A stretch of DNA of 63,599 nt, filler included, from Sluysia triapertura (Eukaryota): the NCBI GenBank assembly GCA_046118255.1. It is 5 parts of 5 records of this genome, joined end to end, with 100 filler letters (N's around TTAATTAATTAA, not from the genome) between each part and the next. Parts side by side here need not be neighbours in the genome. Positions count along the whole stretch, not along the records: positions 39,136 to 51,991 come from JBJNIA010077492.1; 4 more parts are not named here. One strand, 5' to 3'. Below, piece by piece: positions 13,449 to 52,091 of this stretch. The notes beneath the pieces were generated by a model. The model did no database searches. It worked only from the letters and a program-made list of their open reading frames with translations, and was not told where the DNA came from. A program made the translations under genes and the position numbers. Each line of letters begins with the position of its first letter. Positions within the stretch are counted from its first letter, which is position 1.

Positions 13449-13810
13449 TAAGATGACGTTGGTGTTGCTGCTAGATTCAAAATTAATTCTGATTCGTACA
13501 TTAATCTTGCGTTATTTTGTTGACGTCATAATTTCATGGCGCTTAGAAAGGGCAAATATTCTAAAACTAATTTCAAAATAAAACCACTTAATTTATATAA
13601 ATTATGATTTTCAAAACAATTTTCATGCAACATTATTAAATAATAACCAGTAAAATTGGACCCGACTGGTAGACAGGTACATTAACCGAGTATGGAAAAA
13701 TTTGGATACTTGGAATAACTAGTGTTAAATTTAATTTCTTAATTTAAAAAATGGATATGACCAGATCAAAATACTTAAGTTCTGTTGGGTTATCAACATT
13801 ATTCAATCTT
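13449..13810 (-). pseudogene. Possible short spliced gene-end fragment with an internal TGA
   Basis: ttttag acceptor near 13561, then YLPFLSAMKL*RQQNNARLMYESELILNLAATPTSS*; two further GC-richer exon-like blocks upstream. Confidence 0.25.
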
Positions 13811-13970
13811 GATTAATTAGCTAGTTTTATTCTTAATATTTCTTTAATAAGTTTGTAATCAATAAGAATAATTTGTTGATATTATTATCTATAATGATAG
13901 CAATAATCAGTATTATTATTACAATAATCAGTTTGTTTTATATGAGATTTATCTGAATTTTTCTGAGTAC

Positions 13971-14037
<67 letters not shown>
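13971..14037. repeat. (TTA)n microsatellite
   Basis: Perfect repeat. Confidence 0.95.
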
Positions 14038-15100: not shown

Positions 15101-15200
15101 NNNNNNNNNNNNNNNNNNNNNNNNNNNNNNNNNNNNNNNNNNNNTTAATTAATTAANNNNNNNNNNNNNNNNNNNNNNNNNNNNNNNNNNNNNNNNNNNN
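15101..15200. other. Assembly linker (N44-TTAATTAATTAA-N44)
   Basis: Exactly 100 bp; the 12-mer puts stop codons in all six frames; identical spacer occurs four times. Confidence 0.97.
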
Positions 15201-40854: not shown

Positions 40855-41269
40855 CTAAAAATAAGTATCCATTTTCTTTAAAAATTAATATTTTTGAAAA
40901 ATTATCAAAATAAATCAAATCAAAAACATAAAATTAATATATATTGAAATTTAACTACAAATATCGTTTCTGAGAAACGTTTAGGAATCATTTGAATTTA
41001 GGAATTAATATGAATATGTAAAAAATTAAAGTAAAATTTGAAAAATAAATTCGAGTCAAAACTTATTCATTCGATAAAACAAATCAAATGAATTTCAATA
41101 GCTGACTTGATAAAAGTTCCAGTTTAAAACATTTAAATTAAGTCGATTAAAATTAAACATTTTTTTCAAGGTCCTTAATGACCTAATTAGTTGAATAAAC
41201 ATTGAAATAATTATAAATATATAATTTTTAAATTATATTAAAAATTATGAAAATGAGAAAAGAACTCAC

Positions 41270-41784
41270 ATAATCTTTGTAAGTAGCATCTGGAAGAGGA
41301 GACTCATTTTCAAAATTAAAATCCTCTAATTTTACTTCATTAATAAATGACCCATATGCTTCAATTTCTTGTAAATCAATCCTAAAATCCCCTCCAGATT
41401 TATATTCACCGATAGTAATTATTATATACCTTCCAATTGTATCATTATATTTACATTTGGTTTCAACACGAGGTTCATTTCCAATAATATTTTTGTAACA
41501 CTCTTTCATTCTGGGTATATCAGTATCCAAGTAACACTCTCTAAATTCATCAGCCAAATAAACCGAAAATTGTTGTTTCGTAAATGAATATCGATGGTAA
41601 GTTACAATTGTATTAATATTGTATATTGCTTCTAAATCATAAGCAATATATGCAAATTTGATTTTATTTGTCCAAATGTTATTTATTTTATTGCCATCGA
41701 CAAGCATTTGAACTCGTTCTGGGATATAATTGGATTTACCAGGTTTATTAAGTAATACATTTTCATTAGTTAAAATTTTATCAA
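41270..41784 (-). CDS. Exon encoding an F-type lectin / F5-8 type C (discoidin)-like domain
   Basis: ttttctttag acceptor and gtgagt donor; NVLLNKP...LVDGN...IAYDLEAIYNINTIVTYHR...C...C...IGRYIII...IDLQEIEAYG follows the NVALxKP/AVDGN/VDL/GRYV/LxEVEVYG pattern. Confidence 0.8.
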
Positions 41785-43282
41785 CTAAAGAAAATAATAA
41801 TAATAAAAATTGTTTTACATTTTATAATTATAATTAAAATTAGGTAGGGATAAAATTCTAATACTGTTTTATATTTCATTTCTAAATGAAATTCAGGCCT
41901 TTACGAATTGTATTAATATAGTATTAATACAGGAAGTTTCAATTTTAATTGTAATATAACTTCACATGAATGATTATCTTCTGTATAATTATTTGACAAT
42001 TATAATAGATTAACTATTGAATAACTATTGAAATAAATTAAAATTATGTCTTATTACTTAAATAAGGTGATAACTTGAAGTTAAATAAGTTATACTTTAA
42101 TTTATGTTTTAACTTTACTTAAGTTACTAAATTAAATTTGCATTACTTTAAGTTGTAATGAAATTCTTTTATTTGTTTTTTATATTCTTTTCCATTTAAT
42201 AAATATATTTAATTTTAAAAATTTGATGTGTAATTTCTATTTTGTATCAATATTAGTTTTATAAACTAAATCGATCAAGATTGTTTTAATTTGTTCTAAT
42301 TTTAACTTAAATTTTTAGATCTTTTATTTCATATAGTGAACTCAATAAGTACGTTCACTAAATACAGCTAACAAAACAATATATAACTAAAGGAGCGGTA
42401 CTAATTAAAAATGATCGTTAAACATTTATTTTATTACATTTATTATCTGTAATAGTTCAGATTGATAATGGCCCAAATAGATTGATAATTTAGTAGATTG
42501 ATCACTAAATTTAATAGTTAAAAATGCAATCATTAAATAAATTTGGCAAACCAGTAGTTGTAGATATTAATTACGAATAATTAAATAGTAATGATGTGCG
42601 ATATTCTTGTTGAGTTATAATAGAAATTGATTTTCATTAGTTCGTATGTAGTATTTTCTAGTATTTTCTATTAATAGTAATAATAATAACAATACTAATT
42701 AATAATAATAATAATAATAAGCACATGTCAAAATCGTAAAATTAAAATGTTTATGAAAAGAGAATTTAATTAATTTTTCAATTAGTTTAAGTTGTATTAT
42801 AATTTAAAACAGAACATTGAAAAGTTGACTCCAATAACAAAAAATAGCAATTTAAATTTTTAATAAGGAACAATAACAAAAGGGATACAATTTCGTACGA
42901 AATCGTCTTGAAATTTAAACTTCCTTATGATACTAATTGCTTCAATTCGTGAATGTGTAACGATAACATCACTTTTAAATCAAATGAAACTGTACAGAAT
43001 TTGAAAGAAGTTTCATTTAACAATAAATCGTTTATTTTATTGTTTAACATTAAAATATAATTTGTATCAGTTATATTAATATTTATTTTCATAAAATTTT
43101 CATTGTTATAACTATTATGTAGTGAATTGAAATTCCATAATTCTTACAAAATACAACATTCAATTTCTAAAGTGCTAAACCGAAAATCCAGAATACCTTG
43201 CAACATCAACACAATATTCATAATCGTGAAGACAATAAAATAATCTATATGTTGAGTTTGGTTAAAGATGAAGTAAATGTAA

Positions 43283-43590
43283 GGGTTATAACTTATATTG
43301 TAAGAATAAAGTAAATATTATTGATGAATTAAGATAAAACATTATGACGAATTGTGTTAATGGAATATGAATCAAAATAAAAGAAAAAAAGATACGAAGA
43401 GAGAACCCTTTACCTCTTAAAAGTAATTAATTAATTAATTTCATTAAAAATTCTTTGATCTAATAATTTGCACATGATAAAATAACATTAAAATTAAGGT
43501 GTAATGTTGAATTTTATTACTATTCCTAATTTTGAAATGTTGTGAAGCACATCGACGCAGATAACATGAAAATTAGTTATTTTACTTAGT
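43283..43590 (+). repeat. Dispersed repeat family B, copy 2
   Basis: Collinear similarity to 35950-36200. Confidence 0.75.
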
Positions 43591-44022
43591 TTTTACTTAA
43601 ATTCATATTTGTTTTAAGGCCTAAGTATATATTAAAATGTTGCTCACTAGCATATGTAATTACATTTGTAAATAGATGTAATGCAATTGTAAATTAAAGA
43701 TAATTGTGGTAGTACAGCCTCATAGATTACATCACTTACTTTAATCAAAAACCACACAAACTTCATTATAAAAATCACACTAAAACAAAGTCCATTCGTA
43801 ATCTTTACACTATCACACTTTTCATCATTAACAAAACATAGACGTATAATAAACTTTAACATTTTTAATACTCTGTTTATTGATATATAAGTAACACTTG
43901 TCGTCATGTCATCATACGTCAACGCCACTCTTTTAGTGTATCTTGTTTTGTATTATGTGATATTAGTTATTAGCAAAGTGATATTTCATGCAATATATTC
44001 TGTTAAATAATAAAAATAATAA

Positions 44023-47000
44023 ACATTATATAACAATATAATAATTATAGTGATTGCATTAATAATATCTCAGGCATTTTCAGTAATTGGAATTTATAAA
44101 ATATCAGAATTTACATGGAAACTAATAATCGAATGTTTCCCATGTTTAGCTAAGTATCTATTACATCATCATGCCAACGCACAAATAAATGCTTTGAGAA
44201 AGGAAAGACATCAAACAGAAGAACGGCAACAACTAAATATAACATTACAGTCATTACAAAATAATGAAAACGAAGATATTATAGAAAATAAGAAACTATT
44301 AGAAGATCAAACAATTAAAGAAACTCAGAAGAAAAGGATATATCCTATTACTCCAAAATCACCACCACATGTAATATATATGATCTGTGCAAACAATAAT
44401 TACAATGGCTCAAAAAGACCGATGGTAAATATAAGAATAAACGGAAGAACACTTTTAGCACTAATAGATACGAGACGTGGCTTCTTTGATCAATGAAAAC
44501 TTCCTAACTAAAGATGAATTAAAAATCTTCGCACACCGCACCTCTCATCTGTCAGGAGATACAGGAGACGCAATTAATATAGTTGGTGTAATGAAAGCTT
44601 TTTGTGAAGTAGGACAGAATACATTAGAAATTAAGTTACGAGTGATGAAAAATGTCCTGAATAAATGATAATGGGAGTGGATATATTATCCCAACTAAAA
44701 GAAATAACCTTAGATTTCGATCAAGTAAGATTAATGGATAGTAAATCATGAAAGAGCCATCGATGACGATGTGTATATAAATGAACAATTTTGGTTACTA
44801 AAAAGAAGTGATGCCAGCCAAAACTAATAGTCTGTTGACCGGTAATATTATGTTTATTGCACCGGAAGCTAATAAAGAGAAATTAGACAAAAATTGCAAG
44901 TGCAGTATGTAATAATTGTGAAAAAAGAACACCTGTCCGCAGTATAAACTATACGAATGATTACAAATGGCTTTATACTGGCACTAAATTAGGAAAAATT
45001 TATAAGTAAATAATACCTGCACACATTAATATGATAATGGAGGACAAAAATAAGTTAGAAAATAAAAACAAGAATAATATAAAATTACAGTGTGAGATGC
45101 AAGATGAAGCTTATGATGAAATCCAAATCACCAATAAAAATCTACCAAAGAAACAAAAAGATAAGCTATATGATGTTATTTATAGATATCCAAGAGCGAT
45201 ATCGAAAAATAAATATGATGTCGAAGATTCAGTAATAATTTAACATGAAATACCATTGATAATAAACAAAATAATTCGGAAGAAGCTGTATAGAATACCC
45301 ATATGTAACTAAAAAAAAATGCAGGATCAAATAGATGCTATGAAAAAGACTGGGGTAATAAGGCCAAGTTTCTCTCCATTTCATCTCCTGTTTTACTAGT
45401 CAAAAAGAAAGATGGAACAATGAGATTTTGTATAGATTTAAGCGAATTAAATAAAATAACAAGAAAAGATAAATTTCTGTTAACACGTGTATATGAAATG
45501 TTAGATAAATTAGGACATGCAACATACTATACGACTCTTGATCTACAAAGTGGTTATTGGCTGATAGAGATAGCCGAAAAAGATAAAAATAAAACCGAAT
45601 TTCCTTGTGGTTTATATGAGTTATATGAATGTGAGAAAATTCCGTTTGGATCAACTGGAGCACCTGCTACTTTTCAAAGGTGCATGAATTTCGTGTTACC
45701 TGGATGTAAAAATGTTATGGTATATATTGATAATACAATAATATTTTCGAAAGATTTTGACATACATGTAAAAGATATTGATAATATCCTAAATAGGCTG
45801 GAAATATCTAGATTAAAAATTAAACCTACTAAATGTGTTTGGGCCGAAGAAAGAGTTGCATTTTTAGGGCATACAGTATCGAAAGATGGGATAAAACCTA
45901 ATCCGAGAAATATTGAAAATTTGGTTAAATTTCCACAACCAGACAATGTAAAAATGGTACAACGCCTTTTGGGTTTAGCTAATTATTTTAGAAGATTCGT
46001 TAAGATAGCACAGCCACTTAGAAAAGTGACAAATACAGATGGACGGAGGAACAAACAAAATCTTTTAAAGAATAAAAAGAGCGACTAACTACAACACCGA
46101 TATTAGTATTCCCAGATGTTAATAAACCATTCATACTCAATACAGATGCTAGCAATTATGCCATAAGAGCAATTCTGGGACAAAGGTAATCGCATATGCT
46201 AGTCGACGATTAAATAAAGCAGAAATAAATTACTCTACAATAGAGAGGGAGTGTATAGCAATAGTATATGCGTATAAATAGTTTAGACATTACTTATTAG
46301 ACATAAACCATTGACGTACCTGTATAACCATCGAGATGAGGTTAGTATATTAAATAAGTGTTTTAAGAAACTATCAGGATTCGATTTAGAAGTCATCTTA
46401 TAAACCAGGCTCGCAAAATAACGGTGATGATTATATGTCATGATTAATAAATGTAGACGATAAAGGAAACACTAACTTGATACAAATGATGTCAACATCG
46501 GGTAAAGTACAGGATAGCAAGGAAATTATCCAAACATCAAAGAGAAGATGAAGAAATTTCATCTATTATTGATTCTTTAGCGAAAGGGACATATCGAAAA
46601 TCAGGCAAAGAGATTGGCTATCACAGATGGAATTCTTCGATTTAGAAATTCGAAAGAAGATTGGAAAACCATGGCTTCCAAATCATTAATAACACCAATT
46701 TTAATACAGTTTCATGATGGCCAATTAGGAGGACATCTGTCTGTAAGAAAAACACTATCATGTAAAAAAGATAAATATTATTGGGGGAACATGGAAGAAG
46801 ATATTAAAAAATTGTGTAAGGATTGTTCAGTCTGTTGTAGAAGAAAAAATACAGGAATTAGGACAATCAAATCAATGCCGGTACCATTATCACCTATGGA
46901 GTTTACGGTGATGGATACAATGGGACCATTACCGGAAAATATTAATGGAAATAAATATATTATAGTATTTGCCGACTATTTAACTAAATGGCCTGAGGCA

Positions 47001-48880
47001 TATCCAATGCCAAACCAAAAAGCAGAAACTGTCGCACAAATACTTGTAGAGAAAATAATTTACAGATATGGCACACCACGAATGTTACTTACAGATCAGG
47101 GTACAAATTTTACTAGTTATGTAATTAAATCAGTGTAATTAAAATATTCGATATCTTGAGAATTTACACATCACGATATCATCCACAAACTGATGGACTA
47201 GTTGAACGATTTAATCGAACATTGATAAATATGCTTCAATCGTATGTAAATGATAGACAATCAGACTGGGATTTGTATATTGCACCATGTTTATTTGATT
47301 ATAGAAGCTCGATGCACCTAACTACGAATTTTACGCCGTTTTATTTAATGCACGGACGTCACTCAAATATGGCAGTGGATTTAGACTGGATACCAGCTAC
47401 ATCGCAATATATGGATTCACCAGAATATGTAACAGTGATGCACGAAAGATTACAAGATGCTTGGAAACGTGTCGATTTACGGATAAAGTTCTCTCAAGAA
47501 TCATATAAGGACTCATATATAAAATAGCCAAGGGACATAATTTTCTGGTTGGTGACAAAGTGCTTATCAAGTATCCATTAGTAAAACCAGAACGATCACC
47601 AAAATTACACAAGCCATTTAAAGGACCATAAGGATACAACCAAACTAGATCCTGAAACCTTTATAGTTCATGCAAATAGATGCAAAATAGCACCAAATGA
47701 TTAGTAAAAGTTAAGAAATAAAACAGTTAAAAAGTCAATATTAAAAGTAAAACCAAAAACCAAAGATCGCGACAAACCACATTCAATGCAATCATTAGTT
47801 GATTAACAAAAAATAATGATTTTCAATGTATCAAGTGGAATAAGCACACATATTTTCCAAAATGTACGATTGAAAGGTAGATGGATCCGAGCTTTTATAG
47901 AAACAGGAGCTACCACATCTGTAATACATTATAATTTTTTGACTACATGGGAAACCGTTTGTATGGATCCACTACAAGCGATAATTTATAATGTACAGCG
48001 GACATTATAATAAAATGCACATTTGGATGTTTAGACAAACGAGTAAATGAATATGTCTACGTTTGGGGAGAGCGCCATTTCGACTTGATAATTGGTTTAA
48101 ATATACTTGATAAATTGGATGACACAGTTATACATATTACTGTCTTATGAAATTTCCACAAGGTGCACAATTACTACTTCCATAGGTTGTGTTCCATCTC
48201 CTGATAATAACGTTACTCCAATTTATATCCCAACACCTGATCTTGAGTCTAATAATCCAGTACCGCCACCAGGACGATCATCCACCGACTCATCAATGTC
48301 AGCAGTAACAAGCGAACTCTCGCAGTCGTCATCATCAGGAATTGGCTCTGTTGACACAGTAATGCTTACATTTACTAAAGCGAATAATCGTAAGAAATCA
48401 TGGTGGACAACATTACTAATAGTAATGGTTGATTTCTATCTCTAATTAATTCTGCCAAATATATTGAAGAGGATGGAGGAGTATAGAAATTTATGCGCCG
48501 CAATTAATAATGGGAAAGAGCAAAAGATATCAATTACAAATATTTATAATGAGTATTGGAAAATAAAATTTACTTCGAAGAAAATGTTCTTATGACACAA
48601 ATTTTATATATATTGAATTTATCTATACCCATTACTAATTGGTAAAACACACCATGTAGGTAAGATTCAGCATTGCTTACAATACGCGTATAAACCAATG
48701 TTGATAGAATTCACATTGGATACAAAGCAAAACACGAGAAAGGTGCAAAATTTGGTGCAAAATATTACAACAAACAAATATGTGAACAATTGCACATCTA
48801 CATTTAAAAAATAATAATCCATCAAACAATATATTATCTGACTGTGTGGAGGGCAACAAATATTTGTATTTACAAATTCT
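44023..48880 (+). mobile_element. Decayed Ty3/Gypsy element: TM-PR-RT-RNaseH-IN-PR2-env-like; no LTRs or gag seen
   Basis: PR (INGRTLLALIDT.../IMGVDIL), RT (RFCID, LDLQSGYW, PFG..GAPATFQR, VYIDN), RNase H ([15 protein letters not shown]), IN (HDGQLGGH...CSVC, MDTMGPLP, TDQGTNF, YHPQTDGLVERFNRT, PFKGP), second PR (RAFIETGATTSVI...PFDLIIGLNIL). Many frameshifts. Confidence 0.93.
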
Positions 48881-49079
48881 ACTATTATTTTTATATAATT
48901 TTAATTTTTTATGAAAGTTATTAATTAAACAAAAACACTTTAACTTTAATTCAATTATGTGTAACAAAATAGGCGTAAGGCCTGTAAAATTTAGGAAAAT
49001 AAACATAACAAGATTTGACATTTTATTATTAATAAACACTAGAAAGCAACAAAACAAGTAAATAGTTAATAACAATAAA

Positions 49080-49600
49080 ACTACGTGTTTTTGTATATCC
49101 ACTAGAATATCTTCCAGTAGTTTCAACAATTTCAATAAACGATGATGTGATACTATTTCACGTATTGTTAGGAATTGCACCATAAATCTTGTAACCATAT
49201 TTGTATCAAATGCTTTGGCATCTTCTCGTTTATCTAAAGCGCTTTTAATTTTTGAACTATAATTATCCGGTTTTGAATATTCAAGTTTCGCTGACTTTGT
49301 ACTAATATGTTTCCTCGCATCGTCATTTATAATATTTGAATTTTTATTTTCATTATGATTCATATTTGTCTATACTGAGTTGCTGATTACCGTGGACTTA
49401 TTTCGAGTCACCGAATTAAGCATAGAAAACAAACCTAAAGTATTATTTTTATATTTTTGAACATGTTTATTCATAGATAATTCATTTCCTGTAGTATTTC
49501 TAGTACCATTATTGCGATTTCCTCTTTTTGCATCATAAGTGTTACTATTAATTGTAGGAACTACAGTGGTTTTATTTAATTTCATATCTTAACATCAGTA
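49080..49600 (-). pseudogene. Decayed low-complexity coding segment, possibly the distal tail of the TTLL copy
   Basis: ORFs 49370..49585 and 48677..49363 are in the same frame, separated by a single TAG. Confidence 0.4.
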
Positions 49601-49859
49601 TATGCATCATTATTAGTTTCAATATCACAAAATATTATAAACAATGATGCCAAAAATAATTTCATGAACATTAAAGCAAAAACGATGATAATTGATTTTT
49701 TTTATATAATTAAAATAATTTATTTCCTATTATTAAATATTATTTTTCATGATTAGTAGTAATATAATAGGTATACATATTTAGTTTGTAGTAAATTGTG
49801 TTATCAAATTGTAAGAAAATATAATTTCTAGATGTTTTGAATCTCAGTATTTTTATCTA

Positions 49860-51030
49860 TTTAAACAAAGGTGGCAATAAAGCAGATTCCATTTTAAAAC
49901 GTTCCGTGTTACTATTCGAAATAAAATCTAACTCATCGCGCTTGTACTTTGCCGTTTTTAAGCAAGCTGATTTAAAAATGATATCTTGTGATTTATTCTT
50001 TTCGTAACTAGAAATAGCAAGTAATGTGTCTTGGTCTTCCTTGCCAATTGATTTGCTGGTGATTTGAAGTAAGGAGTTTACTTTTGGTTTTACACTTTGC
50101 TTAGAAACATCTGATTTGGTTCTTGTTCAGTTCAAGTTTTCATCTGCAATACTCACAATATGATGTAATTTATTTCGAATATTACTTTCTCCAGATGGTA
50201 CAGATTGACTTTTGTTCAAAGCTGATGAAATATGCATCGATGTTTTTCTTTTTGTTTCCTTAATTTTCATAATACATAAATTACCGATTTTACTTAGTAT
50301 ATCTTTTTTTAATTTCGTTAACCTGTGAACTTAAATTGTACTTTAAAGCTAATTTTGTTATGGCATCATTATTTCTTCGTACCAATTGTTTAATAACTTC
50401 ATTATCATCAATCGTTTGATCGCTTTAAATCTGATATGCATCGTAGAGTCAGACACAAGTTTAGGCTTTTGTACGTATTTTCGAATAGCATGTCCTTTGA
50501 TAAATAAGCCTAGTATTTGATCGATAACAGGTTTTGTAAATGGGTCTTGCTTATACAAAAGTTCAAATTTTCCAGTATCACAATCAGGATCACGAGAACA
50601 ATCAAAAACAACTTTAAATGCATCTTCAATGACAGATTCAATCAATTGTGCAATAACATGAGTACTCGGTACCATACACGGACTTGAATTAATTTCAATT
50701 AACCACATTCGCATATCTTCACGATTGATCATAAAATCGGTTCCGCATAATTCAAATGAATTATGTTTTTTAGGAGATAAAAGTGCTTCTTTCGTAGCAA
50801 ATAAATTTGAATTAACAGTTGGCTGTAAACACGTTTCTTTTGTCGATGCTATACGAAATCCAATGATCAAAAGAAGGAAATGAATCATTATAAAAATATT
50901 TATAAAATTGGATTTACAGAACCGGATTGTTAAAAATGATTCCATTAATGCTGCCGAATCTTCTGTATTAGGAAAATTTTCTAATAATCGTGATCATATC
51001 AAATGTGAACTAAGAAATTGAGCATATTTA
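49860..51030 (-). pseudogene. TTLL3/TTLL8 tubulin monoglycylase pseudogene (C-terminal half, intronless)
   Basis: NSFELCGTDFMI...WLIEINSSPCMVPSTHVIAQL...VIEDAFKVVFD...CDTGKFELLYKQ is diagnostic of TTLL3/8. Upstream has deletion-riddled FD(I)R, YRRF and NNPV traces; the downstream tail is frameshifted. Confidence 0.85.
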
Positions 51031-51991: not shown

Positions 51992-52091
51992 NNNNNNNNN
52001 NNNNNNNNNNNNNNNNNNNNNNNNNNNNNNNNNNNTTAATTAATTAANNNNNNNNNNNNNNNNNNNNNNNNNNNNNNNNNNNNNNNNNNNN
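51992..52091. other. Assembly linker
   Basis: N44-TTAATTAATTAA-N44. Confidence 0.97.

Follow-up and report, generated by a model that had tools for sequence, protein, structure and literature searches.

Pol of canonical Ty3/Gypsy elements carries one protease, upstream of the reverse transcriptase. In a stretch of 63,599 nucleotides (filler included) of Sluysia triapertura, hereafter the window, a sequence-only reading had reported a second, complete aspartic protease (PR2) downstream of a Gypsy integrase, and had suggested that a dedicated second protease could process an accessory or env polyprotein. The locus therefore raises the questions of whether such a domain is present, whether it belongs to the element itself, and what it might do behind the integrase.

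The window joins separate contigs, since the N-runs with TTAATTAATTAA mid-run (51992-52093, and also near 15101, 27728 and 39036) are assembly spacers. The host is probably a flatworm, as judged from one gene in the window, RIC3. Its best named match, in Macrostomum lignano (E 1.7e-32; two further matches are better), lies far above the matches in molluscs (1.5e-18 or weaker).

A retropepsin domain follows the integrase

In the translation of 47400-48700 the integrase C-terminal motifs KPFKGP and HANRCK precede PR2. The N-terminal half of PR2, RAFIETGATTSVI, is read in the same frame as the integrase C-terminus with HANRCK, while the C-terminal half (LIIGLNILDKL) is read in another frame as YVYVWGERHFDLIIGLNILDKL. 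Both retropepsin signatures are thus present in translation, although the sequence quoted earlier as PFDLIIG is actually HFDLIIG. The whole domain lies on the plus strand at about 47837-48147. Its N-half (47837..47995), with Glu at the catalytic position (codon 47900), scored 17.0 bits (iE 1.4e-6) against a profile built from 8 post-integrase proteases. The C-half (47998..48147), with the hydrophobic-Gly motif IIGLNIL, scored 7.8 bits (iE 9e-4) on the canonical profile and -2.7 bits on the post-integrase profile. Because the two halves lie in different frames, one frameshift must be placed near 47995-48005, and the term "complete" therefore holds for length but not for frame. The C-terminal hydrophobic-Gly motif and the full length of a retropepsin are there, both halves being covered by profiles. 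The D-[TS]-G catalytic triad is absent, with Glu instead, whereas it is present in 9/9 first post-integrase copies of relatives.

With X inserted at the break, the score of PR2 was 43.4 bits against a profile built from 21 accessory proteases and 38.7 bits against one built from 18 canonical proteases; among 1000 shuffles the top scores were 9.6 and 8.5 bits, respectively. The proposed scan with the gag-asp_proteas and RVP models gave matches of the N-half to both (E 0.022 and 0.025), below the cut-off; these are among four sub-threshold Pfam matches, every one to an aspartic-protease family. The C-half alone had no Pfam match. Against the ESM Atlas, the best ten family-bearing matches of PR2 were all of the retropepsin family or clan. 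The sole match to the N-half among 1.84 billion representatives was a bacterial repeat protein (P0014), which was rejected as a chance match. PR2 had been described as divergent from the canonical protease (PR1) of the element, and indeed no protease in the set is more than 24% identical to it.

From HANRC (47669) to the PR2 catalytic codon there are 77 codons in one frame with 3 stops between; in the post-integrase proteases of intact relatives, HxNRC and the catalytic Asp are 53-80 residues apart. The linker itself (47691..47836, plus strand), identified by frame reading and tblastn, shares the frame of the integrase end and the PR2 N-half and holds the three stops. In tblastn searches with P0015, P0016, P0018, P0019, P0024, P0029 and P0060 the alignment continues from the integrase into PR2. 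These data confirm that the observation is real and that a retropepsin domain follows the integrase in its frame.

Many related contigs cover PR2. When contigs were aligned to the window (one run, contigs only), the summed depth, which is not a copy number, was 25,624 over 47840-48106 and 7,125 in the bin of the integrase C-terminus. Among the pieces listed, none bridged integrase and PR2 from other copies in the same genome, and the PR2 catalytic codon was not among the differences listed (40 of 1,462).

The element and its decay

The element begins on the plus strand with the C-terminal end of a gB-type Env, comprising membrane segment and cytosolic tail (44038..44283). It was recovered by tblastn with 7 relatives and by a profile built from the Env of 9 relatives (47.2 bits, profile positions 577-660 of 670). 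Env thus stands upstream of PR1, and this position does not fit the suggested processing of env by PR2. The Env ectodomain, Gag and the LTR 5' of 44038 are missing. Since the Gag profile had no match in the window, and no LTR-like repeat pair was found there around the element or PR2, we regard the copy as 5'-truncated. Short repeats shared with other sites of the window occur at 43250-43640, where the 5' part of the element is missing, and further upstream a minus-strand frame (41228-41821) carries an F5/8 type C (discoidin-like) domain (E 0.0002). A second Env remnant of the same kind lies 30 kb from the element on the opposite strand (13505-13980, minus; Env profile 15.1 and 5.0 bits).

Behind the Env end follow, all on the plus strand, PR1 (44401..44739; canonical profile, 76.3 bits with X at the breaks), reverse transcriptase (45381..46040; RVT_1 E 1.2e-27), RNase H (46022..46394; tblastn pieces in three frames) and integrase (46581..47690; Pfam and tblastn, Integrase_H2C2 E 4.3e-16, rve E 6.2e-10), the latter with H2C2 domain, core, GPY/F-type C-terminus and HANRC. 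The PR-RT-RH-IN order and the H2C2 and GPY/F motifs are those of canonical Ty3/Gypsy (Metaviridae) Pol. By tblastn, the window reverse transcriptase is 50-57% identical to that of most relatives in its clade.

PR1 has two frameshifts, one of them inside the catalytic motif, the reverse transcriptase reads YIDN at the YxDD motif, the integrase has several breaks, and the region 45381-47690 as a whole contains many stops and frameshifts. Of the reverse transcriptase and integrase residues that are invariant in the clade, 30/150 are changed in the window (22/91, 5/32, 3/27); in intact relatives the same test gave a median of 0 and never more than 0.10. Given this damage, the Glu in PR2 needs no special explanation and is probably the result of decay. 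The earlier alternative of decay or a true pseudo-enzyme is thereby narrowed to decay as the simplest account, with dead copies in open frames of three relatives leaving room for a pseudo-enzyme. We conclude that the window element is a badly decayed copy from a Ty3/Gypsy lineage with Gag-Env-Pol order and gB envelope, and that it resembles the planarian errantiviruses and Burro.

Downstream of PR2 the plus strand continues with a Ser/Thr/Pro-rich linker (48150..48395) in an open frame (48101-48445) without Pfam match. A hydropathy scan then revealed a signal-peptide-like hydrophobic segment, KKSWWTTLLIVMVDFYL (48398..48460), about 88 codons after PR2, as in the tails of relatives; by eye it resembles the segments of P0020 and P0021. 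The stretch 48460..48930 is probably the remnant of a tail ectodomain and its membrane segment, an assignment made from position only, with a hydrophobic segment at 48878. Neither a profile of the relatives' tails nor an exonuclease profile had a match in the window. Antisense to the decayed tail, a 230-codon open frame (48677-49369, minus strand) without Pfam or Atlas match may be an exon of a neighbouring minus-strand gene. Just past the element lies a frame of the tubulin-tyrosine-ligase family (49857-50993, minus strand; TTL E 2.1e-13). It seems to be repeated, as the summed contig depth over it is high, and may represent either a host gene expansion or cargo of the element.

Extra proteases in the relatives

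The relatives came from an integrase search and a profile search (128 retroelement proteins), from metagenomes (80 loci) and from viral contigs (10 loci). We excluded six gene models of Cordylochernes in which several elements are fused (P0023, P0026, P0031, P0032, P0035, P0111), three fragments, five proteins without a located integrase motif, L004 as a duplicate of P0016 (99.6%), and protease matches 1.9-3.3 kb after the integrase in L012 and L058, which probably belong to the next elements. On an integrase tree (a quick tree of 53 rows with thinned outgroup) the window element falls into a clade of 26 rows (SH-aLRT 98). Its closest relatives each consist of one frame, up to 3,700 aa long, in the order Gag, PF24664 fusion glycoprotein, protease(s), reverse transcriptase, RNase H, integrase and tail. 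Gag is seen in the relatives as PF03732 in P0016 and as CCHC knuckles, and the idea of a lineage without Gag was therefore dropped. Two polyproteins of the clade, P0025 and P0027, are filed under names of bacterial metagenome-assembled genomes (Flavobacteriaceae, Turicibacter) and are probably animal DNA inside metagenome bins.

A profile made from pre-reverse-transcriptase proteases only detected a post-integrase protease in 8/128 proteins, all 8 inside the clade of the window. Outside the clade there was none among the 128 proteins, merged gene models set aside, and none in the 10 distant viral-contig loci. With L005 as a ninth case, 9 of the 24 informative clade relatives (P0050 ends too early) possess a post-integrase protease, all with D[TS]G and in an open frame with the integrase. 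The spacing is the same and the polyprotein is open. That integrase and Asp-intact PR2 share one frame in these intact relatives supports a second protease belonging to the element itself. The refuting case named earlier, in which other copies would lack PR2 and mark it as part of a nested element, fails for the lineage. An open integrase-PR2 frame with D[TS]G likewise exists in these intact relatives, whereas the window copy has stops, the frameshift and Glu.

A second slot for extra proteases comes after the Env membrane segment and is used in P0003, P0015, P0018, P0019, L001 and L002 (two copies). Altogether, 12/25 relatives contain 21 extra domains after Env or after the integrase, and clade members with extra copies carry two to four protease domains in one frame. 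D[TS]G is kept in 18/21 extra domains, and several pairs share just 28-32% identity. The three domains without the triad (DKS in P0024, EVG in P0029 and L005) are second post-integrase copies in open frames. These dead copies (L005:3715-4077; P0029, 942-1057; P0024, 1183-1294) sit directly behind an intact protease and are followed by ankyrin repeats; they are candidates for natural pseudo-proteases. Tandem proteases are about 35-60 residues apart in several elements. In P0003, P0004, P0015, P0018 and P0019, C2H2 zinc fingers lie between protease domains, and the protease-finger-protease cassette is placed either before the reverse transcriptase or after the integrase.

The first post-integrase domain of L005 is predicted to adopt a retropepsin fold, superposing on EIAV protease (2fmb) with Z 10.2 and rmsd 3.1 over 100 residues; this fold is shown in that relative only, by a model of modest confidence. 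A phmmer search of the PDB with PR2 of L004 gave 0 matches. AlphaFold returned a weak model of the L005 tandem pair (pLDDT 58, pTM 0.44, 4 rows), which could not be fitted onto tethered HIV protease (rmsd 13-14); this model lends no support to a single-chain dimer, yet is not evidence against one.

Most clade members continue after the integrase with a signal-like hydrophobic segment, an ectodomain and a second hydrophobic segment, signal peptides being called by hydropathy only. The end of the extra protease is 25-114 residues from the signal-like segment in P0016, P0018, P0019, P0024, P0060 and L002; the two extra copies of L002 lie in a loop that closes with a further signal-like segment. 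The proteases of P0029 and L005 are separated from the signal segment by about 390 residues, ankyrin repeats among them, and P0015 has PR2 but no hydrophobic tail. The tail ectodomain of L002, a relative without PR2, was predicted as two FN3 domains (pLDDT 76). The product of L002:9119-9931 is a post-integrase type I membrane protein and not a fusogen. P0028 has an Ig-like match in the same slot. As the tails differ widely and form several similarity groups, FN3 is shown for one group only. The term "accessory polyprotein" describes this region well, since a signal peptide is followed there by an ectodomain with a membrane anchor, which is FN3-like in the single relative that was folded. Four relatives also have a separate downstream ORF with a DEDD exonuclease (RNase_T; L001:12085-13470, L002:10617-12104, L003:3712-5556, L005:8592-9920).

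Once the window rows were left out, the tree split the 21 extra domains from the 18 canonical proteases with 100/95 support; protease trees were based on about 124 columns. The nine first post-integrase copies do not form one clade (rejected, p-AU 0.002), and the post-integrase state requires at least 4-5 changes on the integrase tree. The post-integrase protease of P0004 groups with the post-Env copies of P0018 and P0019 (99/95), which argues that the protease-zinc finger cassette moved. The EVG/DKS second copies of three relatives form one clade (100/99). PR2 also evolves much faster than the integrase (73% vs 94%, 53% vs 92%). These trees indicate an old accessory protease subfamily that was moved, copied and lost between slots. 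Comparison of PR1 and PR2 in a tree therefore separates the two kinds in the relatives and is less decisive for the window copy. In a careful tree the latter lies on a long branch (1.93) on the canonical side (97/82), and none of the alternatives was rejected, be it a place in the accessory group (p-AU 0.31), as sister to its own PR1 (0.26) or with the dead trio (0.20). It is possible that the window PR2 arose by an independent duplication of PR1.

GAG-ENV-POL elements with gB-type Env have been described in nematodes, bryozoans and flatworms (Chary and Hayashi, PMC13524379). Like Smed_errantivirus_1-6 of that study, the window element has Env before Pol, and the hosts of both are flatworm-like. 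The Env of the relatives matches PF24664 and, for P0015 and P0025, resembles by eye the six Smed Env rows of the supplement, where the YVYQES motif of P0015 occurs once, in Smed_errantivirus_1. From these likenesses of the relatives, a gB-type Env of the Platyhelminthes C1a kind may be suspected; the window copy lacks the ectodomain. The main text of that article uses "protease" once, in a figure legend, does not contain "aspart" and describes no extra protease. Burro (GYPSM1), a group of giant planarian Gypsy elements (Arkhipova and Yushenova, PMC6431247), shares a huge in-frame polyprotein, Env between Gag and Pol, matches to mononegavirus-like fusion proteins, and accessory ORFs. Ankyrin repeats are found in Burro as well as in P0024, P0029 and L005. 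P0015-P0019, P0025, P0028, L001 and L002 encode one continuous polyprotein in which Env is flanked by Gag and Pol, and the window copy, although broken, has the same order. Burro differs in that one PR is listed in the sections of the article available, and in its 4,873 aa, more than 30 kb and MATH, BIR and BCL2 motifs (PMC6431247). No Pfam matches to the latter three were found in our relatives of 2,600-3,700 aa, some of which are cut by contig ends. For reasons of size and motifs we therefore call the relatives Burro-like and do not file them as Burro. The window element works like a Burro-type Gag-Env-Pol errantivirus and probably belongs to the flatworm gB group. LTR elements of bdelloid rotifers have accessory genes after the integrase, including DEDD exonucleases (DEDDy ORF3s) like those of our four relatives, but these lie in separate frames, and the portions of the article available mention no extra protease (Rodriguez et al., PMC5408684). 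Our literature searches brought up no account of extra proteases in Gypsy elements; figures, the Repbase report or supplements could show a second PR. The element type is already known; a layout with several proteases and the accessory subfamily seem to be undescribed.

A possible role at the membrane anchors

The position of PR2, its lineage, the intact motifs of relatives, the separate accessory group and the hydrophobic segments that flank Pol are observed. On this basis we favour, at close to even chances, a reading in which PR2 is a true domain of a Gag-Env-Pol-tail polyprotein and was once an active accessory retropepsin that freed the integrase from a membrane anchor. The polyprotein would be threaded through the ER membrane as Gag, signal-Env-membrane segment, cytosolic Pol and signal-FN3-membrane segment, with a cytosolic stretch of extra protease, zinc fingers, PR1, reverse transcriptase, RNase H, integrase and extra protease. 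As Env stands in the same frame between Gag and Pol, signal peptidase would sever Gag from Env. Pol would not ride on Gag but form a cytosolic loop, held by the Env anchor on one side and by the signal segment of the tail on the other. Extra proteases beside both anchors might then cut the enzymes free, PR2 releasing the integrase from the tail signal segment, and in relatives without PR2 the release of Pol would fall to PR1 alone. Glu, frameshift and stops in the window copy would be decay after insertion. It is the location of both extra-protease slots at the membrane-tied ends of Pol that favours this maturation role. The tail-less P0015, the ankyrin blocks of P0029 and L005 and the window tail without profile match speak against it. 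Moreover, 15 of the 24 informative relatives lack PR2 and most of those keep the membrane tail, so that PR2 is dispensable; it is probably the element's own protease, though perhaps not a "dedicated" one.

Other readings draw on the same data. The patchy presence of extra proteases, with repeated changes on the integrase tree, the lack of a single post-integrase clade, the moved cassette and the fast evolution of PR2 would also fit an active protease carried as cargo, which cuts host proteins or accessory domains such as zinc fingers and ankyrins and takes no part in Pol maturation. Burro, after all, has apoptosis and ubiquitin cargo (PMC6431247). Both used slots, however, adjoin membrane segments, and we consider this reading rather unlikely. 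We know of no host substrate for an extra protease. Patchiness, dispensability and fast evolution are equally compatible with a neutral passenger, which would arise when reverse transcription switches templates and so duplicates the protease, functionless copies being tolerated. Against this speak the catalytic triad, kept in 18 of the 21 copies over long branches, and the grouping of the extras apart from their own PR1s, which recent duplicates would join; we regard it as improbable.

Retropepsins act as dimers, and a divergent or dead subunit, with a genuine Glu, could pair with PR1 or another copy and time its activation. The dead second copies in one clade, the short distance between tandem proteases and the unrejected grouping of the window PR2 with the dead trio would agree with such a regulator, as would the fall in HIV-1 yield upon premature protease activation (PMC8794111). 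But dead copies always stand behind an intact one, whereas the window has a single post-integrase copy, every first post-integrase copy has Asp, and decay changed about one in five invariant residues in the window. A regulatory role therefore seems quite unlikely to us. Very improbable, finally, is an origin of PR2 in another element, nested or adjacent, or a mere chance likeness: the tree is compatible with several positions for it and the N-half has no relative among the 1.84 billion representatives, but frame and spacing are as in the nine intact relatives, no LTR-like repeat pair surrounds it, and its score far exceeds that of the shuffles.

For the family as a whole, we tentatively propose, as a possibility somewhat short of probable, that flatworm-type Gag-Env-Pol errantiviruses harbour a mobile accessory retropepsin lineage, with up to three insertions per polyprotein beside the anchors and with active and dead members. 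The window copy is just a fossil, and its interest is the lineage that it revealed. According to textbooks, retroviruses and LTR retrotransposons have one protease per Pol, which is activated by dimerisation. This rule is broken by a clade in which one frame may hold two to four protease domains, forming a subfamily of their own. To our knowledge, processing split among several proteases or pseudo-proteases is known in no retrovirus or LTR retrotransposon. The clade bears on the question of how Pol, cut off from Gag by an intervening membrane protein, is set free and packaged, and natural elements with and without PR2 are ready comparisons. If the proposal is true, these elements would have a membrane-threaded, flavivirus-like polyprotein that is processed by several aspartic proteases and pseudo-proteases.
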